A model generated the notes under the pieces. The model saw only the letters and a list, made by a program, of their open reading frames with translations, was not told the origin of the DNA and searched no databases. 61,674 nt of DNA, taken from NCBI GenBank assembly GCA_964648695.1, contig CAZYLH010000002.1, positions 1-61,674 of the forward strand, read 5' to 3'. Shown in pieces: positions 10 through 50,098 of this stretch (the first letter of the stretch is position 1; every line of letters starts with the position of its first letter). Position numbers and translations under genes: made by a program. The DNA comes from an uncultured Lachnospiraceae bacterium (GTDB lineage Bacteria; Bacillota; Clostridia; Lachnospirales; Lachnospiraceae).

Positions 10-1287
10 ATGACAGGTGGCACAAGAAAACGTGGTTCTACATGGTATTATTACTTTGAGCTAGGAAGGGTTGATGGAAAACGCCAGCGGAAGGAAAAAG
101 GTGGGTTCAGAACCAAGAAGCAAGCGGAAGCTGCTCTGGCCCAGGCGATCAACGAATATAACAACGCCGGGGCAGTATTTGAGCCCTCTGGTATAACGGT
201 ATTTGACTATTTAGATCAATGGTATGAGCTATACTGCAAACCTAACCTGAAATATAATACGCAGGTTGGCTATCTGCGGATCATAGAAGGACATTTAAAG
301 CCTAAATTCGGAAGATACCGCCTGAAGGCCATAACTTCTGCCATATTACAGGAATATGCAAATGATCTGAAAATGAATGGCTTTTCCAAAAGCCACATTA
401 GCGGGATCCTCTCCGTGTTTGGAACTGCCATGGATTATGCGGTTGAACCGCTGCATTATTTGAACACCAACCCCATGCGCTATGTGAAATATCCCAAAGT
501 GGAAAAAGAGCCCCGTGAACGAATCGTTTTGACTTTGGAAGAGTGGCAGCGGATCATCGATCGCTTCCCCGCTGGTTCCCGGTTTCACATTCCCTTGATG
601 ATAGGCTTTTATACTGGCCTACGTATTTCAGAAGCCTTTGCCCTTACATGGGATGATATTGATTTTGAAAAGCGCACGATCACGGTTTCAAAGCAGGTCG
701 TAAAACGGAACTTTGGAGCTGATGTTCGGAAGGTGGTAGAACAGAAAGGGAAGCGGGAAATGAATGCTTCTTGGTACTTCACCACACCTAAAACCCTATC
801 TTCCAGGCGCACCGTACAATTTGGAGATACTCTTTATCAGGCATTAAGAGCAGCACAGATCGAACAGATCAAAAACGAATTGAATTATGGGGAATGTTAC
901 ACTGTTCACATCTTAAAAAAGGAATTGGACGAAAAGGGTAATGATATGTTCCGCATTGTACCCATCCAAAAATTTGTGGAAACGGAATATCCCCGTGTCC
1001 GTATGGTATGCACTGCGGAAAACGGAGATTATACTTCCACCGATTCCTTCAAATACTGTTCCCGGATCATCCACAAGGAGTTGCAGCTTGCTTTTGATTA
1101 TCATTCATTAAGACATACACACGCCACGCTTTTAATCGAGTCCGGCGCCGATGTGAAAGATGTTCAGGTAAGGTTAGGACACTCAAACATTCAAACTACG
1201 CTGCAAACCTATGTGCACGACACGGAAGTGATGGCAGCACGTTCCGTTGAACTATTTGAACAGGCAGCACGCTTTAAAATCTCATAG
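10..1287 (+). CDS. int: tyrosine site-specific recombinase (phage/ICE-type integrase with N-terminal arm-type DNA-binding domain)
   Basis: 425-aa ORF. The catalytic set is visible: GLRISEAFAL (Arg), HSLRHTHATLL (His-x-x-Arg), LGHSNIQTTLQTYVH (His...Tyr). The N-terminal KRGSTWYYYFELG...FRTKKQAEAAL is typical of integrase N-domains. Confidence 0.9.
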   Translation: MTGGTRKRGSTWYYYFELGRVDGKRQRKEKGGFRTKKQAEAALAQAINEYNNAGAVFEPSGITVFDYLDQWYELYCKPNLKYNTQVGYLRIIEGHLKPKFGRYRLKAITSAILQEYANDLKMNGFSKSHISGILSVFGTAMDYAVEPLHYLNTNPMRYVKYPKVEKEPRERIVLTLEEWQRIIDRFPAGSRFHIPLMIGFYTGLRISEAFALTWDDIDFEKRTITVSKQVVKRNFGADVRKVVEQKGKREMNASWYFTTPKTLSSRRTVQFGDTLYQALRAAQIEQIKNELNYGECYTVHILKKELDEKGNDMFRIVPIQKFVETEYPRVRMVCTAENGDYTSTDSFKYCSRIIHKELQLAFDYHSLRHTHATLLIESGADVKDVQVRLGHSNIQTTLQTYVHDTEVMAARSVELFEQAARFKIS

Positions 1288-9018: not shown

Positions 9019-9522
9019 TTAAGTTTCTGACAGCAAATTAAGAAGCGTATCATAAACAAAGTCTACGCTCTTTTTCCTTACAATATTTCTCCCTATGCCT
9101 CCAAATTGTTTTGTAAAGGCGTAGCTTTCACCGTTTATATAAAAGCCAAAGCAGACCATGCCGACAGGCTTTAGTTTAGTCCCACCTCCGGGCCCTGCCA
9201 CCCCGGTGATGCCAACGCCCACCTCGGCGTCATTTTTTGTTGCAGCGCCCTCTGCCATCTCCTTAGCAACCTGCTCGCTTACCACGCCGCAGCTTCCTAT
9301 CGTCTCCGGGCTCACTCCTAGATAGGTTATCTTTGCCTCATTTGAATAGGTCACAAAGGAGACATCAAAAACCTTTGATGCATCCGGCACGCCAACCAGC
9401 ATAGCCGCCGCCATGCCGCCGGTGCAGGATTCCGCAAAGGAAATATGCCATCCCTTCCTTATAAGAAGCTCGGCCACCTGCCTGTACGTTGGTTTTTTAA
9501 CCACTGCCTTTAAGCTTTTCAC
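9019..9522 (-). CDS. CinA C-terminal domain protein / nicotinamide-nucleotide amidase (PncC-like), stand-alone
   Basis: 167 aa. ISFAESCTGGMAAAML and GITGVAGPGGG motifs of the CinA-C family. Confidence 0.8.
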   Translation of the reverse strand: MKSLKAVVKKPTYRQVAELLIRKGWHISFAESCTGGMAAAMLVGVPDASKVFDVSFVTYSNEAKITYLGVSPETIGSCGVVSEQVAKEMAEGAATKNDAEVGVGITGVAGPGGGTKLKPVGMVCFGFYINGESYAFTKQFGGIGRNIVRKKSVDFVYDTLLNLLSET

Positions 9523-9523
9523 A

Positions 9524-11515
9524 TTACTCCTCCAGATTCATCTCCTCATTTAAGGGAAGTGTGAAGGTAAAGATAGAGCCGTTAGGCGTATTATCCGTTA
9601 GCGAAATCTCTCCTCCATGCGCCTGAATTATGGATTTGCACAGCGAAAGCCCCAGTCCGATGCTTGTAGTGTCTTTTCCGGTTTTTCCTACCCCTGTAAA
9701 GAACATGTCAAACACGTAGGGCTTAATGTTATCCGGTATACCCTCGCCCTCATCTGCGATGCTTACAGAGATAACGTCCTCATTTTGAGACGCACTTATA
9801 CTTATCTTTGAGCCCGCAGGCGAAAACTTCACCGCGTTATCAATGATGTTTACAATCACACGCAAAATAAGCTCATGGTCCATATTTACAAACAGCAGGC
9901 CATCGTTTAGCCAAAGCTCTATCTCATGGTCTGTATTTTTTATGTCGACCTGTGCGATCGCCTCCTTTATCACGTCATCCACCAGCTGGTATGACATGTT
10001 AAAGTCCATATTGCCCTCCTCAAGGCGCGTCACAAGCTGGAGATTTTTTGCATACTCCATAAGGCTCCTGGCACTTGCTGCAATGCTATGAAATGCTCTC
10101 TTTCTTTTTTCTTCGCCTACCAGGGCATAATCAGACAGATTTCTGCCTGCCTGATTATATATATAGTCCAGAGGCTTATAAAAATCATTTGAGATTGCCT
10201 GCAAGAGGTTTGCGCGAAGCTTTTCGCTCTTTTCAAGAACAATGGAAAGCTCATGAGCGTTTTGTTCGCGGATATGCTCGATCGCAAGCGCACAGCCACC
10301 AAGCACGGACATTAAAATGCTTTCCTCAAACGCACTTAGGGGCTTTCCTTCAAGATTGATGCCTACCACCCCGTTCATTTTGTTATTCGCACGCACGCCC
10401 ACATATATGCAGTTTGCATCCCCAAGCGTCTCTGTAAACGCGCCCGCTCTTGCCTTATATGTCATGGCCCACTCAGCCGCGGCTCTGTCCTTTTCTGAAA
10501 AGAACACATCGCTTTTTGCATCGGGCACAACGGTTGAGATATATCCTTTGCCGATGGAACCGTTTATCTCAGGATACGCGATAATGTCGCGGTTTAAAAG
10601 CTTCATCAGCTGGCTTGCCGTGATGCTCATAATCTCGTTTTCATCCTTGGCCTTTTTTAAGAGCTGATCCGTGTCAAACAAAACACGTGTCTGGAATGCA
10701 TACTGGCCCGCCACATGCGCCTGCTCAGAAAGCCTTGGAATAACGCCTGCAATAACTAAAGCAAGAACAAAAAATATAAGCAGGCTGGAAAAAGCGTTTA
10801 TGTCCCCTACTCCAATTTCTGCCGGCGCTACTAAAAGCAAAAAGCTCCATAACCCCAGTCCCAGTATACTTGATGCTATGCTACATACATAGTCCCTGGT
10901 TAAAAGCGCGGTTAAAAATACTCCAAGCAGATAAAGCGCCAGCGCTGCCGTACTGCCAAGACCGACCATGACGCAACCCACTCCCAAAAGTGTGGCCGCC
11001 ACAAGGAGAATAAAAGTCACCGCCATATCCCTAAGACTGGGACACAGACTCCTTTTAGCGGCAGGGTTTTTCATCTTATAGCTTTTTTCAACAAAGACAT
11101 CCGGAATGATGTAGATGTCCAGATTCGGAGCGATCTCTGTGAGTCTCTCCGTCAAGGTTGGCTTACTCCAAAAGTGCCTGCGCTTGACACTGCTTCGTCC
11201 AACCACCACCTTGGTGGCCCCGGCGGTTCTGGCAAACTCTGCAATCTGATGGGATACATCCTCCCCGTAGACCGTGGTCAGCTCCGCCCCAAGCTTTTGC
11301 GCAAGGCGCGTGTTGTTTTCCAGACGCTTTTTGTTCTCCTCACTCATCTTATCTGCGCCGGGCGTCTCAACATAGAGCGCTGTAAAACGCGCCCCAAAAG
11401 CGGCTGCCATCCTCGCCGCTGTTCTCACAATCTTTGCGTTAGAGGGTGATGATGATAGTCCCACAAGAATATGATCCGTAACGATCTTTTCACCGGACAC
11501 CTTTTCATGATCCAT
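9524..11515 (-). CDS. KdpD-like membrane sensor (Usp-TM-GAF-HisKA-HATPase) lacking the KdpD N-domain and the phospho-acceptor His
   Basis: Usp-like start ILVGLSSSPSNAKIVRTAARMA, GRSSVKRRHFWSKPTLTERL, four hydrophobic helices. The H-box position reads LLQAISNDFYKPL (Asn, not His). N/G1/G2 boxes are intact: IIDNAVKFSP, DEGEGIP, GLGLSLCKSI. Confidence 0.8.
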   Translation of the reverse strand: MDHEKVSGEKIVTDHILVGLSSSPSNAKIVRTAARMAAAFGARFTALYVETPGADKMSEENKKRLENNTRLAQKLGAELTTVYGEDVSHQIAEFARTAGATKVVVGRSSVKRRHFWSKPTLTERLTEIAPNLDIYIIPDVFVEKSYKMKNPAAKRSLCPSLRDMAVTFILLVAATLLGVGCVMVGLGSTAALALYLLGVFLTALLTRDYVCSIASSILGLGLWSFLLLVAPAEIGVGDINAFSSLLIFFVLALVIAGVIPRLSEQAHVAGQYAFQTRVLFDTDQLLKKAKDENEIMSITASQLMKLLNRDIIAYPEINGSIGKGYISTVVPDAKSDVFFSEKDRAAAEWAMTYKARAGAFTETLGDANCIYVGVRANNKMNGVVGINLEGKPLSAFEESILMSVLGGCALAIEHIREQNAHELSIVLEKSEKLRANLLQAISNDFYKPLDYIYNQAGRNLSDYALVGEEKRKRAFHSIAASARSLMEYAKNLQLVTRLEEGNMDFNMSYQLVDDVIKEAIAQVDIKNTDHEIELWLNDGLLFVNMDHELILRVIVNIIDNAVKFSPAGSKISISASQNEDVISVSIADEGEGIPDNIKPYVFDMFFTGVGKTGKDTTSIGLGLSLCKSIIQAHGGEISLTDNTPNGSIFTFTLPLNEEMNLEE

Positions 11516-11703: not shown

Positions 11704-11740
11704 CAAAAACGGCATAGCCCACCATAAATGAGCTATGCCG
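11704..11740 (-). terminator. rho-independent terminator ending the RR-HK-VTC-DUF4956-lipoprotein operon
   Basis: CGGCATAGC (11710-11718) pairs with GCTATGCCG (11732-11740). Minus-strand T-run TTTTTG follows. Confidence 0.75.
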
Positions 11741-11752
11741 TATAAATTTTTA

Positions 11753-13573
11753 TCAGCTTGCCGAAACATCTCCGGAAATAGTTCCGACTGAAATAGTGTA
11801 GGTATCTCCGGACACAAGCTCCGGACTACTAAAGATAAATACCTGATATGACAACTCAGGCTCATACTCTAAAACGACATTTCCGTCCGAGTCCGTAACC
11901 GTGATAAGGGTTCCCGCACTCTGAGTCCCGACACTTACTGCAATAACGCCCTGCTCTGAGTCGCTAAAGGTCTCTGCCATAGATGAAGCACCTGTTCCGA
12001 TAAAGGTACCGCCGGTGATCACCGCAGAGACATCATAATCTAAGGTTGATGTATCGCCCTGTGTCGGCCCAACCACCGTGATATATCCGCCGGAGATTTC
12101 AATAGTGCCGTTTGCATCCATGCCATCGCCGGAAGCGTTGATATACAGAGTTCCTCCGGATATAACCATGGTGCCGTTCGAGGAGGAGCTGTCCCCCCAT
12201 CCTCCGCCAAACATTCCGTCGCGTCCGCCAGTGGTGCCGCTTGAATCAGTACCCCCAGCTGCGTTTAGTCCGTCATCCGTCGCCACGATACTTATATCGC
12301 CGCCCTCTATGCAAAGGTTAAGCGCCTCGAGTCCTTCATAACTGGTGGTGATGTCGATTGCCCCGTCTGTGATAGTCAGGGTGTCATCCGCATGGAAGCC
12401 GTCATCGCCCGTCGCAATCTCAAAGCTGCCTCCGCTAACCGTGATCGACGAATTTGAATGAACAGCGTCATCCGCCGAGTCAATTAAAAAGCTTCCGGCG
12501 TATATGTACATGTCTCCGGCCGCTTTTAAGCCCTTCATGCTGGTGCTGCTGTCATCATCAGATGAGGTTGAAGACGAAGATGACGATGATTCGCTTCTTC
12601 CGCCGCCTCCCATAAAGCCGCCCCAGGAATCAGAGGATTCCTCTTCGGCATTCTCATATCCTCCGCCTGTCAGAAGCTCAAATACGCCCCCATAAATCTG
12701 CATATATGCTCCGGCGCTTATCCCATCACCCTCTGCCTCAATGTCAAAGGTGCCTCCTGAAATGTATACAAATCCCAGCGAGGAATCGTCATCGTTTTCT
12801 GCGTGCAGTCCGTCCTTTCCCGCATCAACGCTTATGCTTGTATCTCCGGTAATGCGGATGCTGTCGTTAGCCTGCAGTCCATGTGAGGCTGAGGTGATGA
12901 TATATGTTCCGCTGGTGATCACTAAATCGTCTTTTCCAACAATTCCGTGCCCCGCGGGCGATGTGACAGTCAAGCTGCCGTACCCGTTTAAGGTAAGATC
13001 CTGCTTTGAGTAGATAGCCCCGTCGATATTATTGTCATCAATCGCAGTAAAGGTGCCTCCGTTTGAGAGATAATTTTCACTTCCCTCAGCTAAGGTGATA
13101 AAAACCTTATCCGCCTCCAAAATATAGATGGCAGCACTACTCTCGCTGTTTATCGTCACCCCGTCAAGCACCAGCTGGATCTTGGCATCGTCCGGTGCAT
13201 CAACTATCACCATGCCGTCATCTAACGTACCTGACAGGATATAAGTTGCCTCCGCCGTGATTGTTACAGTGGAGCCATCTATTATCACAGTTTCTGAGGT
13301 GGCAGTGGCGCTATCACCGTCTAGCACTATCTGCACAGCATCACTCTCATCATACTCCGTCCTGCTATCACGGTTTGTAAACATCTCTTCATCTGCCTCG
13401 GAAGCATCCGCTATAACCGTAACAGAATCTGTATCCGTTGTTGAATCAGTGCTGTCATTGTCACTTGTCTGCGCCTGTGTGGTAGTAGTGGTGCTGCTTT
13501 CTTCAAGAGCACAACCGCCAAGTGATGAGCATATGAGCATAGCACTGATTATAATCGCTCCTCTCTTCTTCAT
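11753..13573 (-). CDS. secreted lipoprotein, Cthe_2159-like parallel beta-helix carbohydrate-binding domain protein
   Basis: Lipobox LICSSLGGC, a Thr/Asp/Ser linker, many repeats of the type DG(I/L/F/M)xA...I.GG..., and an internal Gly/Ser-rich segment (GGGGRSESSSSSSSTSSDDDSSTS). Confidence 0.65.
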   Translation of the reverse strand: MKKRGAIIISAMLICSSLGGCALEESSTTTTTQAQTSDNDSTDSTTDTDSVTVIADASEADEEMFTNRDSRTEYDESDAVQIVLDGDSATATSETVIIDGSTVTITAEATYILSGTLDDGMVIVDAPDDAKIQLVLDGVTINSESSAAIYILEADKVFITLAEGSENYLSNGGTFTAIDDNNIDGAIYSKQDLTLNGYGSLTVTSPAGHGIVGKDDLVITSGTYIITSASHGLQANDSIRITGDTSISVDAGKDGLHAENDDDSSLGFVYISGGTFDIEAEGDGISAGAYMQIYGGVFELLTGGGYENAEEESSDSWGGFMGGGGRSESSSSSSSTSSDDDSSTSMKGLKAAGDMYIYAGSFLIDSADDAVHSNSSITVSGGSFEIATGDDGFHADDTLTITDGAIDITTSYEGLEALNLCIEGGDISIVATDDGLNAAGGTDSSGTTGGRDGMFGGGWGDSSSSNGTMVISGGTLYINASGDGMDANGTIEISGGYITVVGPTQGDTSTLDYDVSAVITGGTFIGTGASSMAETFSDSEQGVIAVSVGTQSAGTLITVTDSDGNVVLEYEPELSYQVFIFSSPELVSGDTYTISVGTISGDVSAS

Positions 13574-13585
13574 AAATATCCCCCT

Positions 13586-14287
13586 CTAAAGCTCTGCCAT
13601 GGAGCTCTCCTGTCTGGAAACTGAGATCTCCAGATTTCCATTTCTGCAGCGAATCAGATCTATCATCTCCTTTTCCTTCGTGATATCCCGAAGTACAACA
13701 TTATATTTAAGGCGGAACATACTTCCCATATTTGTAGTTTTTACATTCACAAGGTCATGGGAGGTGGTGTAGTCCTCAAAAATATCCTCAAAAACCTCTG
13801 TGTAATCAAGATCCTCCGGAATAGTGACTGATATAACCTTGTAAGCCTCGTTGTTTTTTTTTGCTCCAAAATCAAGATGGCTGTAGAGAAGAAATATCGC
13901 GCACAGTATCAGGGTAAAGAGTATCGCATAACCAAGATATCCCATTCCTGAAATAAGACCAGCTCCCATCGCCAAAAACAGAGCGCAAATCTCCTTTGCA
14001 CTTCCGGGCGCAGAGCGAAAACGCACTAAGCTGAACGCTCCTGCGACAGCCACACCTGTTCCCACATTTCCGTTTACCATCATGATCACCACACACACCG
14101 CAGCCGGCAAAAGCGCAAGGGTCATCACAAAACTCTTGGTGTAATGTGAGTGATACATATAGACAAGCGCCATAATCAGTCCTATGATGATCGAGCATCC
14201 TAAACACAATAGAAAGTTTGTCACGCTGATCACCGATGTCAAATCCGTATCAAATAATCCACTAAACAATGATGATGCATTAAGCAC
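13586..14287 (-). CDS. DUF4956 domain membrane protein
   Basis: 233 aa. Four to five hydrophobic helices, GAFSLVRFRSAPGSAKE motif, soluble C-terminal ~90 aa. Overlaps the VTC gene by 8 nt. Confidence 0.7.
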   Translation of the reverse strand: MLNASSLFSGLFDTDLTSVISVTNFLLCLGCSIIIGLIMALVYMYHSHYTKSFVMTLALLPAAVCVVIMMVNGNVGTGVAVAGAFSLVRFRSAPGSAKEICALFLAMGAGLISGMGYLGYAILFTLILCAIFLLYSHLDFGAKKNNEAYKVISVTIPEDLDYTEVFEDIFEDYTTSHDLVNVKTTNMGSMFRLKYNVVLRDITKEKEMIDLIRCRNGNLEISVSRQESSMAEL

Positions 14288-14999
14288 AGCCTACTACCTC
14301 CTTTTTCTTTCTCGGGTAAATTATTTTTTTATATGCTGTTCCATATTTTGAAAATGATGTCTTATAGATATGCTCCTCAGATAGGACATCAATCATCCAG
14401 AGCGGAATTGCGCCCGAGCACTTTATCTCCATGAGCGTTGTGCCCTCTGGAAGAAGCGAAATGCCATATGGCTCAGAATTAAGGGAAAGCTCATTCTCCC
14501 TGCATAAGATATTTTCATCAAGCGTCACCCTAAAATCGGACTTGTCTTTTGAGTAATATGCCTCCCTCTCGTATGAGAGATACACCGCCGGATGGATCCC
14601 CTTGTAGTACTGCAGGAAATACTCTATCTCTCTGGCAATCTGGCTATCTAAACGTTTCCCCCCATCCAAAAGCCACCTTGTGGCGTCCTTTCTTGGCATT
14701 GCGATACGGCGCTTATATACCACCTTTTCGTATTTCTTTTTCAGCTCCACAAAGACAGTGGTCGCCTCATTTGCCTTACAATAGCTGCGGACGCGAAGCT
14801 TTTCCTTATACTGCGGTCCCTCTATAGAATGGCGGATCAGGCGATAGTCATCCGTGTCAAAATAGATGTTTCGTATTATCGTGCGTCCATACTTATCAAG
14901 CGCCATATATGGCTCCATCGCACTTAAAAGCTTTTGCTTTTGCTCTTTTGAGAGTAGGTATTTCTGTTCATATCTCTTAAAAATAGCTTGATAAGCCAT
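14280..14999 (-). CDS. VTC-domain (polyphosphate polymerase-like triphosphate tunnel) protein
   Basis: FKRYEQKYLL, KLRVRSY, VFVELKKKY and LMEIKC are tunnel-strand motifs of the VTC/CYTH superfamily. Trimmed to the ATG at 14999, preceded by AGGAGG plus 5 nt; the ORF-track ATG at 15017 contains that RBS. Confidence 0.75.
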   Translation of the reverse strand: MAYQAIFKRYEQKYLLSKEQKQKLLSAMEPYMALDKYGRTIIRNIYFDTDDYRLIRHSIEGPQYKEKLRVRSYCKANEATTVFVELKKKYEKVVYKRRIAMPRKDATRWLLDGGKRLDSQIAREIEYFLQYYKGIHPAVYLSYEREAYYSKDKSDFRVTLDENILCRENELSLNSEPYGISLLPEGTTLMEIKCSGAIPLWMIDVLSEEHIYKTSFSKYGTAYKKIIYPRKKKEVVGCA

Positions 15000-15068
15000 A
15001 AAAAACCTCCTGTACATTTGATATAAGTAAATGTACAGGAGAAACCTTGAAATTTGATTGAAAAACCT

Positions 15069-16307
15069 TTACTTTTTTTTGCGATTTATCGGCAGGGTGA
15101 CGATAAATGTGACCTTGCCGCCCGAACACTGAACGCGAATACTTCCCTTATGCCCGGTCACGATAGCCTTTGCGATGGCAAGCCCTAACCCATAGTGATG
15201 GGAATCACCCGTTCTGACTGAATCTACGCGGTAGAAGCGGTCAAACAAATACTTTCGCTGCTCCGGAGGGATCCGCTCGCCATCGTTTATCACGCAAAGA
15301 CACGCCTGAGCCTTTTCTTTTTTTAGCTGAATGCACACCTCATTTCCATTTAAACTGTGCTGGATTGCGTTATCCACCAGAATTGTCATAAGCTGCTTTA
15401 GCTGCACATCATTTCCATGCACCAGTATGTTCTCAGCAACATCCACCTTAAGCTTTAGCCCGCGCTCATAAGCCATGGTCTCAAACGGGAGAATTTCCCC
15501 GTAGACCAGGCGGCTTAAATCAACCGTTCCCATTTGCACACGCACGTTTTCCGTCCTTGCAAGCTCAAGAAGCTGCGCGATAAGCTCTGACATTCTATCA
15601 TTCTCATAGCGAATATTTGAAAGCCATGGGCTCTCTCCTGTTTCCTGGCTTAAAAGCTCTAAGTTTGTCTGAATAACCGCCACCGGGGTCTTTAGCTCAT
15701 GACCGGCATCCGAAATAAACTGCCTCTGTCCCTTATATCTCTCCTCTAGAGGAGTGACAATCCAGTTTGCCAAAAACACGGAGAGGAAAAAGAGAAGTAC
15801 CAAGGCAGCACCTCCAAAAATCATCGTGTAGTAAAACAATGTTCCTGCGCTTTCCATCATCAGGGTGTTATCTAAGAATGCCACCAGCATATATCCGCCC
15901 TTATCCTCCACAAGATATAGGAGATTATTCTCCATCCCCTCGCGCTTATCGCTTTCTATAATATCCAGTGCAAGCGCTGTAAGCGCCTCCTCATCCAGGA
16001 TTTCAAGATTGGCCGTGTCAACATTTAACACCTGATTTGACTTTGAAACGGCAACAGAATAAAAAGTGGAAAGCTCTGCCCGGGGCATGTCAAACGGCCC
16101 GGTTTCAGCCGAATTAAACTGTGCATAAAGCTCACCGGATTTTTCCTCTAAAGTATACGACCTTACATACTGCTCTAAAAGCGCCCTGTTCTCATTTGTG
16201 AGATCTCTGTAGCTGGCAAGATATATAACGCAAAAGGTTCCCGCAAGCAGCAGTAACAGTATCGCCAAGATCGAGAGTATTATCTTCCATCTGGATCTTT
16301 TAAACAT
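15069..16307 (-). CDS. sensor histidine kinase (two TM helices, HAMP-less periplasmic loop, HisKA/HATPase)
   Basis: FISDAGHELKTPVAVI H-box, VDNAIQHS N-box, GLGLAIAKAIV G2. Overlaps the RR gene by 8 nt. Confidence 0.9.
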   Translation of the reverse strand: MFKRSRWKIILSILAILLLLLAGTFCVIYLASYRDLTNENRALLEQYVRSYTLEEKSGELYAQFNSAETGPFDMPRAELSTFYSVAVSKSNQVLNVDTANLEILDEEALTALALDIIESDKREGMENNLLYLVEDKGGYMLVAFLDNTLMMESAGTLFYYTMIFGGAALVLLFFLSVFLANWIVTPLEERYKGQRQFISDAGHELKTPVAVIQTNLELLSQETGESPWLSNIRYENDRMSELIAQLLELARTENVRVQMGTVDLSRLVYGEILPFETMAYERGLKLKVDVAENILVHGNDVQLKQLMTILVDNAIQHSLNGNEVCIQLKKEKAQACLCVINDGERIPPEQRKYLFDRFYRVDSVRTGDSHHYGLGLAIAKAIVTGHKGSIRVQCSGGKVTFIVTLPINRKKK

Positions 16308-16986
16308 TTACATACCTCAGCTCATAGCCAACCCCGCGCACCGCCTTAATCTGCGTCTTGGCGTGGATAAAATTTAACTTCTTTCTGACAAAGGACATAT
16401 ACACCTCTACGTTATTATACTCTGCGTTGCTGTCATATCCCCAGATCTTTACCGCCAACTGCTCCCTTGTAAGAACCTGCCCCTGATTGATGATCAGATA
16501 TTCCAAAATATGCATTTCCTTCTCACTAAGGCGCACATGCTCCTTGTCACAGGTAAGCATTAAACTGTCCTTTTTTAACGTGATGTCCCCAAACTTTAGC
16601 TCACTGCTGTCTAATACAGCGCTCCCTCTGCGGCTTAGGGCTCTTAAGCGCGCGAGAAGCTCCTCCGTCATAAAGGGCTTTGTCAGATAATCATCCGCCC
16701 CGCAGTCAAGACCCTTTACCTTATCCTCCAGCTCACTCTTTGCCGTGAGCATTAAAATCGACGTCCTGATACCCTGATTTCTGGCGCTCTTTGCGATCTC
16801 ATAGCCGTTTTTTCCAGGAAGCATGACATCTAAGATGGCAAGATCATAGATTGCGGTCTCTAATGCTATCAAGCCCTCCTCACCGTCTGAAAAATGATCC
16901 ACCTCATAGCCCGCATTTTTCAAAACCGCACACAGCGCCTGCGCCATGCGATGCTCATCCTCCACCAAAAGGAGCCTCATTTTCAA
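16300..16986 (-). CDS. OmpR/PhoB-family response regulator
   Basis: LLVEDE...DLAILDVMLPG...LMLTAK receiver domain. C-terminal winged helix: LTLKKDSL...LSEKEMHILEYL...VRGVGYEL. Confidence 0.92.
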   Translation of the reverse strand: MKMRLLLVEDEHRMAQALCAVLKNAGYEVDHFSDGEEGLIALETAIYDLAILDVMLPGKNGYEIAKSARNQGIRTSILMLTAKSELEDKVKGLDCGADDYLTKPFMTEELLARLRALSRRGSAVLDSSELKFGDITLKKDSLMLTCDKEHVRLSEKEMHILEYLIINQGQVLTREQLAVKIWGYDSNAEYNNVEVYMSFVRKKLNFIHAKTQIKAVRGVGYELRYVNV

Positions 16987-17002: not shown

Positions 17003-17051
17003 CAGGGTAGTCACGCCCTCACTTGCTTTACGTAAGGACATAACTACCCTG
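17003..17051 (-). terminator. 9-bp-stem hairpin between the DD-carboxypeptidase gene and the RR gene (weak terminator or attenuator)
   Basis: CAGGGTAGT (17003-17011) pairs with ACTACCCTG (17043-17051). The 31-nt loop contains the palindrome TTACGTAA. The minus-strand T-run is poor (ATTTGAT), and the hairpin ends only 16 nt from the RR start codon. Confidence 0.35.
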
Positions 17052-42753: not shown

Positions 42754-45700
42754 ATGGATACATATATAGGATTGATTTCCAAAATCTTTAAAAATAAAAG
42801 AACGACAGCCAATAAAGTCGCTGATAAGAATTCATTTAAGGATCCAAAATGCCAGAGTTTGCGAAACTTAAATGCTTATATGGACTCACTATTATCACAA
42901 AATCGCTATATTGCAAAAAGTGAATATCGCCAGGAGCTGCTTAGTGGCAAGAAAACCATTGAGTATTTTGGTGTACTTCAGAGCAGTCGGTTATTAAATG
43001 ATTTCTGTAAAAAGAACCGCCTTTCACTTTCCGCTGTCGAAAGAGCATTGTCAAAATATATGAACTTTGAAGCTCTTGTAGATAAGCATAATGAAACTTT
43101 TATTAGCCGCGCGATGATTGAAGAACAGGATTATCTGGATAATATTCTTCGTGATGTCGATCCCCAGATCAAGCTTGATGAGGATCAGCGCCGTGTTGTC
43201 CTGACGGATGAGGACTATTGTCTTGTCATTGCCGGCGCAGGTGCGGGAAAAACCACCACAGTTGCGGCAAAGGTCAAATATCTGGTTGAGAAAAAAGGCG
43301 TTAAACCCTCCCAGATTCTTGTTGTATCCTTCACCAATAAGGCCGTTCAGGAACTCCAAGATAAAGTCAACAAAGATTTGGCGATAGATTGTCCTATTGC
43401 CACCTTCCACTCAACCGGATATGCCATCTTAAGAAAGCGGTCACCGGAAAAACTTAATATTGTCGATGATTCTAAGCTATACTTTGTTTTGCAGGATTAT
43501 TTCAAAAGCTCTATATTAAAGAACGAAAGCCTCGTAAATAACCTGATTTTGTTCTTTGCCTCATATTTTGACGCTCCATATGAAGGGGACGATCTCAATA
43601 ATTTCTTCAACAAAATTGCAAAATCAAATTTTTCCACGATGCGAAGTGATCTTGAAGACTTTAAGCGAGATGTCCTTGACACCCGCACTAAGAAATCAGT
43701 TACGATTCAAAGTGAGGTATTGCGCTCCCATCAGGAGGTGGAGATCGCAAATTTTTTGTATTTGAATAATATCGACTATGAATATGAGCCGCTGTATAAG
43801 TATGATATCCTTTTATCAAGAAAGCCCTATACGCCCGACTTTATTATTCGCCAGGGCGATAGAGTTGCATATATTGAGCATTTTGGCATTACAGAGGACG
43901 GCAGAAACGATCGCTATAGCAGCGATCAGCTTGCGGCCTATAAAAGGGCTGTAAACGACAAAATCATTTTGCACAGGGACCATGGGACAGCTCTTATCTA
44001 TACCTTCTCGCAGTATTTAGACCGCAGACCCCTACTGGAGCATCTGCAGGAGGAGCTGGAAAAGAACGGCTTTGAATTACATCCCCGTTCAAACAAAGAG
44101 GTAATGGAAAAGCTTGTATCCTCTGAAGAGAGCCGTTATATAAGGAGACTCATCAGTCTGATATGCCGTTTTATCTCCAACTTTAAGGTAAACGGTTTTT
44201 CCGAGGACGAGTTTACCCGTATGTACCATTCAACCCAGAATGTGCGCACAAGGTTGTTTCTAAACATTTGCAATGACTGCTATCTGGAATATGCGCGTTA
44301 TCTGAAGGAAAATAATGCCATTGACTTCGAGGATATGATAAATGAATCCGCACGGTTCCTCAGAAAAGTCAAGGAAATGAAGCAAACCCTTGACTTCAAA
44401 TATATTATCGTAGACGAGTATCAGGATATTTCACGGCAAAGGTTTGATCTGGTGACAGCACTATCCGAGGTTACAGATGCCAAAATAATTGCTGTCGGCG
44501 ATGATTGGCAGTCGATTTATGCGTTTAGCGGCTCCGATATAACGCTCTTTACAAAGTTTGAAGAAAAAATGGGTTATGCAAAGCTTCTAAAGATTGTGAA
44601 GACCTATCGCAACTCGCAGGAGGTAATTGACATTGCCGGTAACTTTATCCAGAAAAACAAAGCGCAAATTCCAAAGGCACTAAAGTCTCCCAAAAATATC
44701 GTTGACCCTGTTATTATCTACACATATGACGGAAGCCGAAAAAGACTAAATGCCAATAATAGAAGCGGCGCAAATTACGCAATTGCACATGCCGTAGAGG
44801 TTGCGATTGAGCAGATCATTAAATTTAACAAACAGGAAGGAAAGCCTGAGAATTCTTCTATCCTACTGCTTGGCAGGTATGGCTTTGATGGTGATAAATT
44901 AGAAAAATCGGGGTTGTTTGAATACATCGCCAGGGGAAATAAACTCAGAAGCGTAAAATATCCGAGACTCAACATCACGTTTATGACAGCCCACGCCTCA
45001 AAGGGCTTAGGATATGATAATGTCATTGTTGTAAATGGGCGCAATGAGACATACGGCTTTCCTTCAAAGATTGAGGATGACCCCGTTCTTGCGTTTGTGA
45101 TCAAAGGTGATCGCTCCATCGATTACGCCGAAGAACGCCGTCTGTTTTACGTTGCAATGACAAGAACTAAGAATCGCGTTTATTTTATTGCCCCCGAGCA
45201 AAACCCCTCTGAATTTCTACTCGAGCTAAAGCGCGATTATAAAAATGTCATCCTGCGCGGTAATTGGAACGAAGAACCGCCACAAAATAATCTTGCGAGA
45301 AAAACCTGTCCCATTTGTGGTTATCCTTTGCAATTACGCTATAAAAATGCCTATGGATTACGGTTGTTTCTCTGTACTAACGATCCTGAGGTTTGTTCAT
45401 TTATGACCAATGACTATAAGGGCGGGAAGCTCTCTATTCTTAAATGTGATCGGTGCCAAGATGGCTATCTTGTCGTCAAACCAGGAATAAACAACGGTTA
45501 TTTTCTTGGATGCACAAATTACCAGAAAAACGGCACGGGATGTGGAAGTTTTATTTCTTCTACGAGTTATTATAGAATGTTCAAGCTTGAGCCTGATCCT
45601 GCTCCTGCAAAAGAGTCTGCTTCACCGTCAAATACAAGTCGGTCGGCTGGATCTAAACACAAAAAAAGCGTGTCATCATCTGCGTCAGCATCAAATGCTA

Positions 45701-46131
45701 AACAATCGTCAGAATCCAAGCACGAGGAAAGCACGGTGATAAAGGAGGCAAATGTTAAAGCGGTTATGTTCAATGATGAGGATCTGAATGACATTGTCCA
45801 TACTGTTTTGCAATGCCTCTCTCACATCAATGAGAAACATTTTTACGGCATACATTTTTTAGCAGATGTGCTTCGCGGAGCAGGCGATGGGACAAACGGC
45901 GAGCGTATTATAGAGGCTGGGTTTGACAAACTGCCGGAGTATGGAAAACTAAGCCCGATCAGTCGTGATGATGTGATTACCATCATAGGGTGGTTAATCG
46001 AAAATCACTTTATACTGAGAACAAAGCATTATAGATACCCTGTTCTTCACCTGACTTATGAGGGTATACATTATGATGAAACCATCACGGCAAATAAGCT
46101 TAAAAAGCTTCTCGCAAAATTAAATTCCTAG
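42754..46131 (+). CDS. helicase IV (HelD)-like SF1 helicase with nuclease-like insert, two topoisomerase-type C4 zinc ribbons and an RQC-like winged-helix tail
   Basis: 1125 aa. LDEDQRRVV, AGAGAGKTTT, TFHS, VDEYQD, GDDWQSIYAFSGSD, YRNSQEV, TAHASKGLGYDNVIVV, EERRLFYVAMTRTKNRVY. The RBS is weak (GAGGGG is 14 nt away), so the exact start is uncertain. Confidence 0.85.
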   Translation: MDTYIGLISKIFKNKRTTANKVADKNSFKDPKCQSLRNLNAYMDSLLSQNRYIAKSEYRQELLSGKKTIEYFGVLQSSRLLNDFCKKNRLSLSAVERALSKYMNFEALVDKHNETFISRAMIEEQDYLDNILRDVDPQIKLDEDQRRVVLTDEDYCLVIAGAGAGKTTTVAAKVKYLVEKKGVKPSQILVVSFTNKAVQELQDKVNKDLAIDCPIATFHSTGYAILRKRSPEKLNIVDDSKLYFVLQDYFKSSILKNESLVNNLILFFASYFDAPYEGDDLNNFFNKIAKSNFSTMRSDLEDFKRDVLDTRTKKSVTIQSEVLRSHQEVEIANFLYLNNIDYEYEPLYKYDILLSRKPYTPDFIIRQGDRVAYIEHFGITEDGRNDRYSSDQLAAYKRAVNDKIILHRDHGTALIYTFSQYLDRRPLLEHLQEELEKNGFELHPRSNKEVMEKLVSSEESRYIRRLISLICRFISNFKVNGFSEDEFTRMYHSTQNVRTRLFLNICNDCYLEYARYLKENNAIDFEDMINESARFLRKVKEMKQTLDFKYIIVDEYQDISRQRFDLVTALSEVTDAKIIAVGDDWQSIYAFSGSDITLFTKFEEKMGYAKLLKIVKTYRNSQEVIDIAGNFIQKNKAQIPKALKSPKNIVDPVIIYTYDGSRKRLNANNRSGANYAIAHAVEVAIEQIIKFNKQEGKPENSSILLLGRYGFDGDKLEKSGLFEYIARGNKLRSVKYPRLNITFMTAHASKGLGYDNVIVVNGRNETYGFPSKIEDDPVLAFVIKGDRSIDYAEERRLFYVAMTRTKNRVYFIAPEQNPSEFLLELKRDYKNVILRGNWNEEPPQNNLARKTCPICGYPLQLRYKNAYGLRLFLCTNDPEVCSFMTNDYKGGKLSILKCDRCQDGYLVVKPGINNGYFLGCTNYQKNGTGCGSFISSTSYYRMFKLEPDPAPAKESASPSNTSRSAGSKHKKSVSSSASASNAKQSSESKHEESTVIKEANVKAVMFNDEDLNDIVHTVLQCLSHINEKHFYGIHFLADVLRGAGDGTNGERIIEAGFDKLPEYGKLSPISRDDVITIIGWLIENHFILRTKHYRYPVLHLTYEGIHYDETITANKLKKLLAKLNS
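43705..43908 (+). other. restriction-endonuclease-like (PD-(D/E)xK-like) insert within helicase domain 1
   Basis: RSHQEVEIANFLYLNNIDYEYEPLY...YTPDFIIRQGDRVAYIEHFG. It has the Glu...PD...E-x-x layout, but no Lys after the Glu, so catalytic competence is uncertain. Confidence 0.4.
45304..45546 (+). other. two topoisomerase-type C4 zinc-ribbon modules
   Basis: CPICGYPLQLRYKNAYGLRLFLCTNDPEVC and CDRCQDGYLVVKPGINNGYFLGCTNYQKNGTGC. Confidence 0.65.
45766..46068 (+). other. RecQ RQC-like winged-helix module
   Basis: FLADVLRGAGDGTNGERIIEAGFDKLPEYGKLSPISRDDVITIIGWLIENHFILRTKHYRYPVLHLTYEG parallels the RecQ VLRG...L..yG.g...s...W...i..Li..g.l...........L.LT..g pattern. Confidence 0.5.
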
Positions 46132-46196
46132 CCCCCTTTGAAAAAAGCTTTCCAAAAGGCCTCCTGCCAAAAAAGAATCAGAAAGGAGCAATGTAT

Positions 46197-49139: not shown

Positions 49140-49190
49140 AAAACACCGCTGTAATGCCTTTATAAGATAGGCGTTACAGCGGTGTTTTAC
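49138..49190. terminator. bidirectional terminator between the convergent GH and lgt genes
   Basis: 17-bp stem AACACCGCTGTAATGCC (49142-49158) pairs with GGCGTTACAGCGGTGTT (49170-49186, one mismatch). It is flanked by A-run and T-run and overlaps the lgt stop. Confidence 0.75.
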
Positions 49191-50098
49191 TGCTCCTCTG
49201 CTATTTTCTCCTGAGGCTCCTCCCTAGGCACTTCCTCCACTCTATTCTTTGCCCTTGCGTGGCCAATAGCCAGAGCAGCAATCCCCACAAGTACCAGTAT
49301 GGCGGATAAAATCTGTGAAACAGCCCAGTCTGTGTTCCAGAGCTTTAGCTGATCCGTCCTAAGGCCCTCTATAAAGAAACGCCCCAGACCGTAGCCCACA
49401 AAGTAGATGTACAAAAGCTCACCCTTAAATTTTCTGTGCTTTCTGTAGATGAGCATAAAGACAAGCACGCACAGGTTCCACACGGATTCGTAAAGAAAGG
49501 TCGGATGCACCTGAATATACTCTGCGGCAATATCCTGAAGATTTGCCTCCATGGCTTCCTCAAGCTCCTGGGTTATCAGGCTGGAATTTACAAGCGTCCT
49601 CTTAATCCTCATGGCAAACAAACTGTCCGTATATCCCCCGAACGCCTCACAGTTAAAGAAATTTCCCCATCTGCCGATTGCCTGCCCAAGTATCAGCCCG
49701 CAGATTCCGCAATCCGCCAGCTGCCAGGGACTGATCTTTTTCACCCTTACAAAGACTGCAAGAACGATCAGGCTCATAAGCACCGCGCCGTAGATGGCAA
49801 GTCCCCCTCCTCTTATGTTAAAGATCTGCAACGGATTTTCAGAATAGTAATCCCATTCAAAGATCACATAGTAAATGCGAGCGCCGATGATACATAAGGG
49901 TACCTCAAAGATGGCAAGATCATAGATGATTTCATCCCCCATGCCCTCCAGCTTTGCAAGCTTTGCCGCCAGGGCAATCCCTGCCAGAATACCTATGGCG
50001 ATTATGATCCCATAGAACATGATATCAAATCCAAATACGCTGATGTAGTTCTTTAAATTTTCAATCTCAATGCCAAGATTCACAAATTCGATATCCAT
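49187..50098 (-). CDS. lgt: prolipoprotein diacylglyceryl transferase
   Basis: GRWGNFFNCEAFG signature, seven hydrophobic helices, charged C-tail. Confidence 0.92.
   Translation of the reverse strand: MDIEFVNLGIEIENLKNYISVFGFDIMFYGIIIAIGILAGIALAAKLAKLEGMGDEIIYDLAIFEVPLCIIGARIYYVIFEWDYYSENPLQIFNIRGGGLAIYGAVLMSLIVLAVFVRVKKISPWQLADCGICGLILGQAIGRWGNFFNCEAFGGYTDSLFAMRIKRTLVNSSLITQELEEAMEANLQDIAAEYIQVHPTFLYESVWNLCVLVFMLIYRKHRKFKGELLYIYFVGYGLGRFFIEGLRTDQLKLWNTDWAVSQILSAILVLVGIAALAIGHARAKNRVEEVPREEPQEKIAEEQ

Follow-up and report, generated by a model that had tools for sequence, protein, structure and literature searches.

Whether a bacterium can make polyphosphate (polyP) with a relative of the yeast enzyme Vtc4 and pass it to the cell surface is the question raised by five co-directional minus-strand genes that span positions 11753-16986 of a 61.7-kb stretch of DNA (61,674 nucleotides, called the window throughout) from an uncultured Lachnospiraceae bacterium. 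The genes encode, in order of transcription, a response regulator (RR), a sensor histidine kinase (HK), a VTC-domain protein, a DUF4956 membrane protein and a lipoprotein. In bacteria, polyP synthesis is ascribed to PPK1 and PPK2, and we know of no defined export route for the polymer. The analysis reported here indicates that this module is real and coherent, and that the pairing of VTC with DUF4956, also in company with CotH, is already known and uncharacterised. Synthesis of polyP followed by hand-over at the surface is plausible on the basis of the sequence evidence, and a probability of approximately 0.4 was assigned to the proposal that the membrane is the site at which polyP, or something related to it, is produced before delivery to the cell surface. 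The features of the cassette are as follows.

11709-11741, minus strand: intrinsic terminator closing the cassette (15-bp stem with 7 GC pairs, 3-nt loop, T-run)
11753-13573, minus strand: lipoprotein with two Cthe_2159 domains; a 12-nt gap with AGGGGG precedes the gene
13586-14287, minus strand: DUF4956 membrane protein, 233 residues; GTG start within the last VTC codons, GAGG upstream
14280-14999, minus strand: VTC-domain protein, 239 residues, isoelectric point (pI) 9.3, soluble; ATG preceded by AGGAGG
15006-15042, minus strand: 14-bp hairpin whose 3' arm holds the VTC Shine-Dalgarno sequence AGGAGG (15006-15011), followed by U6 (15000-15005) and the ATG
15030-15035, minus strand: candidate -10 hexamer TACATT of a VTC promoter, from reading of the sequence and from conserved alignment columns
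15046-15062, minus strand: candidate response-regulator box TTCAAT-N5-TTCAAG, a direct repeat with 11-bp periodicity
15069-16307, minus strand: sensor HK; 8-nt overlap with the RR gene
16300-16980, minus strand: RR of the OmpR/PhoB family, 226 residues from the ATG at 16980; the start given by the open reading frame (ORF) lister is the TTG at 16986

The five-gene minus-strand block, with its overlaps, motifs, lipobox and terminator, had been described earlier from the DNA letters alone (the sequence-only reading), and all of these elements were present on re-reading; RYEQKY, KLRVRSY, VFVELKKK, LMEIKC, GAFSLVRFRSAPG and LGGC were all found in the translations. For the RR gene, the ATG at 16980 is a likelier start than the TTG at 16986, with AGGAGG situated 8 nt before the ATG. 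The VTC and DUF4956 genes overlap by 8 nt (GTGCTTAA), which represents translational coupling. The three families proposed for the effector proteins were confirmed by Pfam as VTC (PF09359), DUF4956 (PF16316) and, for the beta-helix lipoprotein, Cthe_2159 (PF14262).

The relationship of the VTC protein to Vtc4 was supported by both profile and fold comparison. The PF09359 match (E 5.6e-39, 134.5 bits against a cut-off of 23) extended over residues 14-231, corresponding to profile positions 1-233 of 235, and no Pfam match to the CYTH family was obtained at E<=0.01. When a profile of the protein was compared with the PDB, Vtc4 was found at E 1.8e-14, whereas the non-catalytic Vtc2 and Vtc3 were found at 4e-8 and 2e-7, respectively. 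The AlphaFold2 model was of moderate quality (pLDDT 69, pTM 0.68). In a Foldseek search with this model, the top 13 matches were all Vtc4, Vtc3 or Vtc2 chains, the best being 3g3q (Vtc4; E 3.4e-11, TM-score 0.62), and hydrolases of the CYTH/TTM superfamily appeared as secondary matches with E-values of approximately 1e-6 to 1e-4.

An alignment of 22 VTC sequences with identities down to 26% contained 28 invariant columns. The invariant residues alternate (R9-E11-K13, K65-K67-R69-R71, E85-K87-K89, K96-R98, Y143-R145, R157, E191-K193 and S217-K218), as expected for strands that line a tunnel. In yeast Vtc4, nine residues whose mutation lowers polyP have been reported (K200, R264, R266, K281, Y359, R361, E426, S457 and K458), and K458 is replaced by Leu or Ile in the inactive paralogues Vtc2 and Vtc3 (bioRxiv 10.1101/2023.01.27.525886). 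Vtc4 positions were converted to native numbering by adding 185 to the PDB chain number, as derived from the 3g3q and 8i6v rows, and the following correspondence was obtained.

Vtc4 R196 and K200: R9 and K13 of the window VTC protein
Vtc4 R264 and R266: R69 and R71
Vtc4 K281: K87
Vtc4 K294: K96
Vtc4 Y359 and R361: Y143 and R145
Vtc4 R373: R157
Vtc4 E426 and K428: E191 and K193
Vtc4 S457 and K458: S217 and K218

Thus, all nine residues required in Vtc4 match invariant bacterial ones, namely K13, R69, R71, K87, Y143, R145, E191, S217 and K218. The conservation of tunnel residues that the sequence-only reading presupposed was therefore borne out, and it includes the lysine that separates active Vtc4 from Vtc2 and Vtc3.

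Conservation of the cassette was studied in one genome per species. At least 575 species-level genomes encode close relatives of the VTC protein, which makes the cassette a widespread candidate system, and the best 80 loci were retained; nearly all of them belong to gut or rumen Clostridia, including Oscillospiraceae, Lachnospiraceae and Acutalibacteraceae. The window proteins were searched against all ORFs of these loci, and DUF4956 was found directly downstream of VTC in 77 of the 80, which includes all 74 loci with room for it. Cthe_2159 was next after DUF4956 in 64 of the 67 loci with room. Of 77 loci, 47 had the identical 8-nt VTC/DUF4956 overlap. In Candidatus Merdivicinus, a close homologue (67% identity) was found in the same five-gene order with wholly different flanks. 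Flanking genes were otherwise unrelated, since no other family occurred in more than 8 of the 80 loci. The presence of the same cassette in unlike flanks in dozens of species indicates that the arrangement is not due to chance. A two-component system (TCS) was adjacent in 41 of 56 judgeable loci, and no CotH-like ORF was detected in the 80 loci. Consequently, of the co-occurrence proposed in the sequence-only reading, the tight linkage of VTC, DUF4956 and Cthe_2159 and the frequent presence of a TCS were upheld, whereas the TCS proved not to be universal and CotH was absent (0/80).

In the three loci in which Cthe_2159 did not follow DUF4956 (L038 4056-5385, L032 4445-5494 and, in Ruthenibacterium lactatiformans, L021 1978-2778), this place was occupied in one by two tandem HAD-family hydrolases and in two by ORFs with no Pfam match. 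A profile search with DUF4956 yielded 4167 representative proteins at E<=1e-3. Apparent VTC-DUF4956 and DUF4956-Cthe_2159 fusions among metagenome representatives (P0376, P0391, P0464, P0466 and P0470) were considered as Rosetta-stone proof and rejected, each domain being fragmentary. Such chimeric entries could mislead function prediction that is based on fusions.

The DUF4956 protein matched PF16316 with E 8e-17 (61.9 bits against a cut-off of 30.6). It consists of 4-5 hydrophobic helices and a soluble C-terminal beta-alpha-beta-beta-alpha-beta domain (residues ~150-225). Its close homologues are 73-79% identical, and its conservation exceeds that of VTC. Family-wide, G83 and R91 are invariant, and R89, the GAFSLVRFRSxPG loop, the GxxxGxG helix and the RxRNGNL tail motif are nearly so. 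The sequence-only reading had cast this protein as an analogue of the eukaryotic channel, and homology did not support this proposal: no match to SPX or DUF202 was found in any of the five proteins, no Vtc chain was among the Foldseek matches of the DUF4956 model, and a Vtc1-like channel was rejected for want of sequence and fold support. A modest alignment with MgtC/SapB was obtained instead. The Pfam MgtC/SapB model (PF02308) gave no DUF4956 match even at E<=10, and comparison with E. coli YhiD alone was not significant. With an alignment of eight MgtC/SapB sequences (plasmid proteins), hhalign gave a probability of 73% and E 3.1e-5 over 123 columns spanning the whole transmembrane (TM) region, a result of modest significance. 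Weak Foldseek matches of the tail to IlvN-ACT, PII-like SbtB and CutA (E 0.01-0.07) came from a model with pLDDT 54. A 2025 study read the S. intermedius homologue as an MgtC-like TM domain followed by an ACT domain (PMC12345266). It is thus probable, judging from sequence, that DUF4956 is a distant MgtC/SapB relative, and in the model its tail looks like a ligand-binding domain of the ACT/PII type. Because no channel homology was found and MgtC was aligned instead, a translocase role can be argued only from gene context.

The lipoprotein matched PF14262 with E 7.5e-96 in two stretches separated by Ser/Asp/Gly-rich linkers, and its residues 80-304 matched the Cthe_2159 structure 4PEU/4PHB with E 6e-34. 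Its N-terminus carries a signal peptide and an LGGC lipobox (MKKRGAIIISAMLICSSLGG-C), and an lgt gene is present within the window (49187-50098). The mature protein has a pI of 4.05, with 98 D+E versus 12 K+R. A signal peptide and Cys were found in 62/62 partner proteins inspected (57 by regular expression and 5 by eye), so that the lipoprotein is a regular extracytoplasmic partner, as had been proposed. These 62 partners are acidic as well, with a median of 81 D+E versus 27 K+R. In a wider Cthe_2159 sample, three members adjoined VTC and DUF4956, the trio being kept at 26-50% identity and in three gene orders, and two members were solitary. In Streptococcus rifensis, a GT2/GtrA gene was situated ahead of the VTC/DUF4956/Cthe_2159 trio.

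Immediately ahead of the founding Cthe_2159 gene of Acetivibrio, and of that of a close relative, is a gene for a secreted CotH protein of ~800 residues, within or beside an exopolysaccharide locus. This CotH protein contains the domains LTD, Fn3_assoc, CHB_HEX_C_1, CotH and Flg_new_2 (L085 4553-7870; L087 4556-7861; L086 3003-7870), and in A. clariflavus the CotH gene is split by a DDE transposase. Binding of cellulose and polygalacturonic acid is reported for the founding member only, Cthe_2159 resembles PL9 pectate lyases, and both CotH and Cthe_2159 are listed as domains that occur uniquely in anaerobic gut fungi (PMC6712302). The association of VTC/DUF4956 with Cthe_2159 in the present loci, that of CotH with VTC/DUF4956 in the literature, and the position of Cthe_2159 after CotH together form a small network. 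For annotation, this means that the label carbohydrate-binding on Cthe_2159 proteins needs correcting, as these proteins usually accompany VTC/DUF4956 or CotH instead of acting as fibre binders on their own.

In the literature, CotH, a "polyphosphate polymerase" and DUF4956 have been noted as an accessory group beside Gram-positive pel loci (PMC7112168). VTC, DUF4956 and CotH also occur in C. perfringens NELoc-2 (PMC2879425), and DUF4956 has been mislabelled as tubulin/FtsZ (PMC2879425; PMC11677781). In S. intermedius, deletion of the DUF4956 or CotH gene was shown to alter Pel levels and aggregation, whereas deletion of the VTC gene altered neither, and the authors did not find their own trio outside pel loci (PMC12345266). 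A review of VTC-domain distribution deals with eukaryotes only. Extracellular polyP acting on host cells is accumulated by some bacteria (PMC10653871, PMC12772234). The sequence-only reading knew of no biochemical characterisation of the bacterial VTC plus DUF4956 pairing; none was found in the literature searched, whereas the pairing itself had already been noted (PMC7112168, PMC2879425) and knocked out (PMC12345266). Since the partner is always a lipoprotein here and links to CotH exist elsewhere, it may be concluded that the cytoplasmic/membrane pair of VTC and DUF4956 forms a core that is linked time and again with a protein outside the cytoplasm, be it Cthe_2159 or CotH.

The RR contained Response_reg (Pfam E 1e-26) and Trans_reg_C (E 4e-21) domains, and the HK contained HisKA (E 7e-14) and HATPase_c (E 1e-20). 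Hydropathy of the HK showed two hydrophobic segments (~4-34 and ~154-188) flanking an extracytoplasmic loop of ~120 residues, and residues 1-190 had no Pfam match even at E<=10. Identity of the pair with PhoBR was rejected, as the scores were below the NCBIfam cut-offs (PhoB TIGR02154, 185.3 versus 296.2; PhoR TIGR02966, 145.2 versus 334.2). The best NCBIfam matches for the TCS, RppA/RppB, were likewise under the cut-off, and every equivalog was below threshold. RR orthologues (phmmer scores 311-362) adjoin the cassette in 20 other species. In the 41 loci with an adjacent TCS, it was upstream and co-directional, as here, in 23, upstream and divergent in 12, and downstream in 6. The cassette-adjacent TCSs represent three unrelated lineages and positions.

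The 69-nt spacer between the HK and VTC genes (15000-15069, minus strand), which was overlooked in the sequence-only reading, is more than a simple operon junction. It contains the direct repeat, the -10 box and the 14-bp hairpin with the VTC Shine-Dalgarno sequence. The repeat TTCAAT-N5-TTCAAG ends 10 nt upstream of the -10 box, is the sole match in the window at <=1 mismatch, and has invariant or nearly invariant columns across 26 species. The -10 hexamer, TACATT here and TACAAT in most homologous loci, is situated in the 5' arm of the hairpin. This layout of repeat and -10 box is that of an OmpR/PhoB-type activated promoter, which supports direct control by the neighbouring regulator. Other repeat classes occupy the same position in other loci (L006-L084, ~100 nt upstream of VTC), namely TTTAAG-N5-TTTAAG-like repeats and TCTTTAG-N4-TCTTTAG. 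When the three classes were compared with RR lineage, as judged by score and position, agreement was 20/20, 5/5 and 2/2, with no cross-combinations; the TTCAAT class occurred only with the orthologous RR lineage (20/20 loci with a visible RR). In locus L010, the orthologous TCS is downstream and the box is still upstream of VTC. Three unrelated TCSs therefore seem to have been connected to one and the same effector cassette, and the adjacent RR/HK pair looks like the dedicated switch that had been suggested, because the box class upstream of VTC tracks regulator lineage.

RNA folding of the spacer hairpin gave -18.6 kcal/mol (z -5.3), and 0/200 shuffles were as stable. Within it, a 10-bp core was kept across 26 species; 98% of the cells are paired, and the changes are mostly G-U, with one compensatory change. 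From its sequence, the hairpin is a candidate insulator or terminator and a candidate structure for masking the ribosome-binding site (RBS) in read-through transcripts from the TCS. The five genes probably form two transcription units and not the single operon that had been described. A further hairpin, 17003-17048 on the minus strand (CAGGGTAGT...ACTACCCTG), lies between the D-Ala-D-Ala carboxypeptidase and RR genes, a few bases ahead of the RR RBS. A clear promoter of the RR-HK pair was not identified in the sequence.

The observations can be assembled into the following scheme. The RR-HK pair would sense an extracytoplasmic signal, and the phosphorylated RR would bind TTCAAT-N5-TTCAAG in the manner of a Pho-box regulator and switch on the promoter nested in the hairpin. 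The hairpin would terminate transcripts reading through from the TCS or mask the VTC RBS in them, whereas transcripts induced by the activated RR would start inside the hairpin loop and so escape it. The basic, soluble Vtc4-like enzyme would then make polyP or a short phosphoanhydride product at the inner membrane face. DUF4956, which has a cytoplasmic ACT/PII-like domain, would anchor and control the enzyme and may offer a path across the membrane. On the outer face, the acidic, lipid-anchored beta-helix protein would use or retain the product via divalent-cation bridges, and in other lineages a secreted CotH kinase would fill this outer role.

Several lines of evidence were counted in favour of synthesis at the membrane with hand-over to the surface. 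They include the near-invariant linkage to DUF4956, the occurrence of the trio at 26-50% identity in three orders, and the kept overlap; the position of Vtc4 as the best match by profile and fold, together with the nine invariant residues and the pI of 9.3; the constant lipoprotein nature of the outer partner and the ties to CotH; and, with respect to regulation, the TCS in 41/56 loci, the three box classes, the unique box and the hairpin z of -5.3. The effects of DUF4956 and CotH deletion on Pel and aggregation in S. intermedius were counted as genetic evidence from elsewhere.

Other points weigh against this proposal. MgtC, the nearest relative of DUF4956, is known as a regulatory protein and not as a transporter. 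Comparison of DUF4956 profiles with the PDB gave no Vtc chain at E<=10 and no solved structure or channel related by sequence, and the DUF4956 model was poor (pLDDT 54, shallow alignment), only its C-terminal topology being used. In the VTC protein, the correspondence of E191, S217 and K218 comes from a second hidden Markov model (HMM) segment that is collinear and by itself non-significant. Moreover, the invariant bacterial E11 stands at the position of Vtc4 Thr198; as what is left of the ExExK signature of hydrolases in the CYTH/TTM group, it makes hydrolysis instead of polymerisation possible. The net charge of the lipoprotein is about -86, which would repel polyP unless divalent cations form bridges, as we infer. 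The apparent fusions are probably chimeric calls across adjacent genes, frameshifted or mis-assembled, and therefore have no Rosetta-stone value. With respect to regulation, 15 loci with room had no adjacent TCS, and covariation in the hairpin was not significant (90/500 shuffles were equal), there being too little variation. Finally, no report on the enzymology of bacterial VTC or DUF4956 proteins was found in the literature searched, and aggregation was unaffected in the S. intermedius VTC knockout (PMC12345266).

Some of this evidence would also fit a cytoplasmic fate of polyP, in which DUF4956 is an MgtC-like metabolite-sensing regulator or anchor, the lipoprotein is co-regulated but acts independently, for example in glycan or cation binding, and nothing is exported. 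This alternative, which we regard as somewhat unlikely, agrees with the alignment of the DUF4956 TM region with MgtC/SapB (73%, E 3.1e-5), with the PII/ACT-like tail, with the same domain reading by the S. intermedius authors (PMC12345266), with the lack of any channel-like homology found for DUF4956, and with the description of Cthe_2159 as a binder of cellulose and polygalacturonic acid (PMC6712302). It leaves unexplained, however, the near-exceptionless linkage to an extracytoplasmic lipoprotein in several gene orders; other lineages link VTC/DUF4956 to secreted CotH, and no other case is known in which an MgtC-family protein is translationally coupled to an enzyme. Instead of a polymerase, the VTC protein could be a tunnel metalloenzyme that acts on nucleoside triphosphates, triphosphate or polyP by hydrolysis or conversion, and the role of the module would then lie in the scavenging of phosphate, in nucleotide signalling or in envelope stress. 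Hydrolases and cyclases make up most of the bacterial CYTH/TTM enzymes, which appear here among the secondary fold matches, the invariant E11 restores one ExExK glutamate that is lost in Vtc4, and the S. intermedius VTC knockout lacked a phenotype (PMC12345266). Nevertheless, a hydrolase is rather improbable in our estimation, given that the protein is Pfam VTC from end to end with no CYTH match at E<=0.01, that the fold E-value of Vtc4 is five orders of magnitude better than that of any hydrolase, and that no member of the Vtc4 residue set varies, not even the K458 lost in Vtc2 and Vtc3.

Another use of an exported phosphoanhydride would be as a donor for wall or exopolysaccharide enzymes (lyase-like Cthe_2159 here and CotH elsewhere), so that the module would decorate or cross-link a surface glycopolymer. 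The position of the founding Cthe_2159 after CotH inside an exopolysaccharide locus, the GT2/GtrA gene preceding the S. rifensis trio, the pel linkage (PMC7112168) with altered Pel in DUF4956 and CotH knockouts (PMC12345266), and the resemblance of Cthe_2159 to PL9 pectate lyases (PMC6712302) all point in this direction. On the other hand, the cassette flanks in the window contain no polysaccharide-synthesis genes, the neighbours dacB, APH-type kinase, tkt, KdpD-like HK and CinA are not recurrent in the 80 loci, CotH was found in 0/80, and no enzymatic activity has been reported for any Cthe_2159 protein; we therefore consider this use a doubtful one. That the five genes are neighbours by chance is hardly credible: the gap of only 69 nt with a possible terminator between HK and VTC could be cited for it, and the comparative data contradict it, with the order conserved in 80 species with unrelated flanks, the coupling kept, and a cis-element that tracks regulator lineage. 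Synthesis at the membrane with hand-over to the surface thus remained the preferred reading. A more far-reaching version of it, which we consider unlikely, would be a third, PPK-independent and export-coupled bacterial polyP route, with a Vtc4-like enzyme docked on an MgtC-like protein; at the surface, polyP would then donate phosphoryl groups or energy to the outer partners, or form a cation-bridged matrix for them, these partners being the Cthe_2159 lipoproteins of gut Clostridia and the CotH kinases at pel loci. Such a route would also account for the activity of kinases outside the cell and for the appearance of bacterial polyP at the surface.

The surroundings of the cassette were also analysed, with 43 ORFs of the window scanned against Pfam. 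The window is otherwise housekeeping chromosome (dcw cluster, ftsZ, thrS, scpAB, tkt, pfk and uvrD), and the neighbours of the cassette in it are dacB, an APH-type kinase, tkt, a KdpD-like HK and CinA. No pel, CotH, ppk, ppx or pst gene was found among the 43 ORFs of this 61-kb window. A single protein with Polysacc_deac_1 and SH3 domains is encoded 12 kb from the cassette. NCBIfam contained no model for any of the three effector proteins; VTC, DUF4956, the lipoprotein and the HK had no match to the PADLOC defence models, with the RR giving only generic receiver-domain matches; an Rfam screen was negative; and the exact VTC protein had no entry in the contig index.

Directly downstream of the cassette, an orphan HK gene (9524-11515, minus strand) encodes a protein resembling the C-terminal part of KdpD (Usp, DUF4118, HATPase_c). 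It has no partner regulator or kdp genes nearby, and a CinA-domain gene is next (9019-9522). At the window start, a tyrosine recombinase gene (10-1287, plus strand) encodes Arm DNA-binding, SAM-like and Phage_integrase domains and may be the edge of an integrated element outside the window; there are no tRNA genes in the entire window. Two large plus-strand genes, for a 1125-residue UvrD-like helicase with RQC and a 982-residue GH106-like rhamnosidase, break up a minus-strand region at 42754-49139. In this segment, which may be an insertion, G+C falls to 0.41-0.42 and the GC skew shifts.

If polyP synthesis and hand-over are true, the cassette would represent a new enzyme route and, for gut Firmicutes, the first pathway of polyP at the envelope, and a rationale for secreted CotH kinases would be provided. 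If they are not true, the cassette is still a tractable case for assigning function to three families of "unknown" proteins, with a putative regulator, operator and promoter mapped.

Comparison with known systems places the cassette closest in its enzyme to the yeast VTC complex (PDB 3G3Q, 7YTJ, 8I6V). Both share PF09359, the tunnel fold and all nine polyP residues including K458, and both join the enzyme genetically to a membrane protein, with a presumed site of action across the membrane. Yeast VTC, however, has an SPX domain and TM segments of the Vtc1/DUF202 type, whereas the cassette is without both and its enzyme is a separate 239-residue protein; its membrane partner is unrelated (DUF4956, MgtC-like), and E11 replaces Vtc4 Thr198. 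Control also differs, being transcriptional via a TCS in the cassette and exerted by inositol pyrophosphates in yeast. CYTH/TTM triphosphatases and class IV adenylate cyclases have the same superfold, and the R-x-E-x-K strand of the window protein resembles their ExExK, but these proteins are smaller (~175-190 residues) and gave far weaker fold matches than Vtc4.

The candidate promoter resembles PhoB/Pho-box promoters, whose layout is established knowledge: two direct repeats with an 11-bp period replace the -35 element ~10 nt upstream of the -10 box, and the regulator belongs to the OmpR/PhoB family. The present regulators, in contrast, are not PhoB/PhoR orthologues, the repeat sequence is different, and the promoter is nested in an RBS-bearing hairpin. 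The MgtC/SapB proteins (Salmonella MgtC, E. coli YhiD) and DUF4956 are similar in architecture, with a multi-pass N-terminal part followed by a small soluble C-terminal domain, and the profile-profile alignment includes the pattern G-x-G...GA...R...A-x-x-G-x-x-x-G-x-G. The motifs GAFSLVRFRSxPG and RxRNGNL, however, are specific to DUF4956, and to our knowledge MgtC does not pair with a tunnel enzyme.

The window lipoprotein belongs to the same family as Cthe_2159 of Acetivibrio (Clostridium) thermocellum and is likewise acidic and beta-helical. It differs from this founding member in having two domains, low-complexity linkers and a lipid anchor, and in its linkage to VTC-DUF4956 rather than to a CotH/exopolysaccharide locus. 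Genetic data are available for just one such system, the Pel accessory set of streptococci, clostridia and bifidobacteria (CotH, "polyphosphate polymerase" and DUF4956, with DUF4832 as an additional member; S. intermedius SIR_1592-1594 and C. perfringens NELoc-2), which contains the same VTC-DUF4956 pair and a secreted or surface protein. In the cassette, the outer partner is a Cthe_2159 lipoprotein and not CotH, no pel or CotH gene is nearby, and a dedicated TCS is present. The cassette is a pel-independent form of the VTC-DUF4956 core pair.

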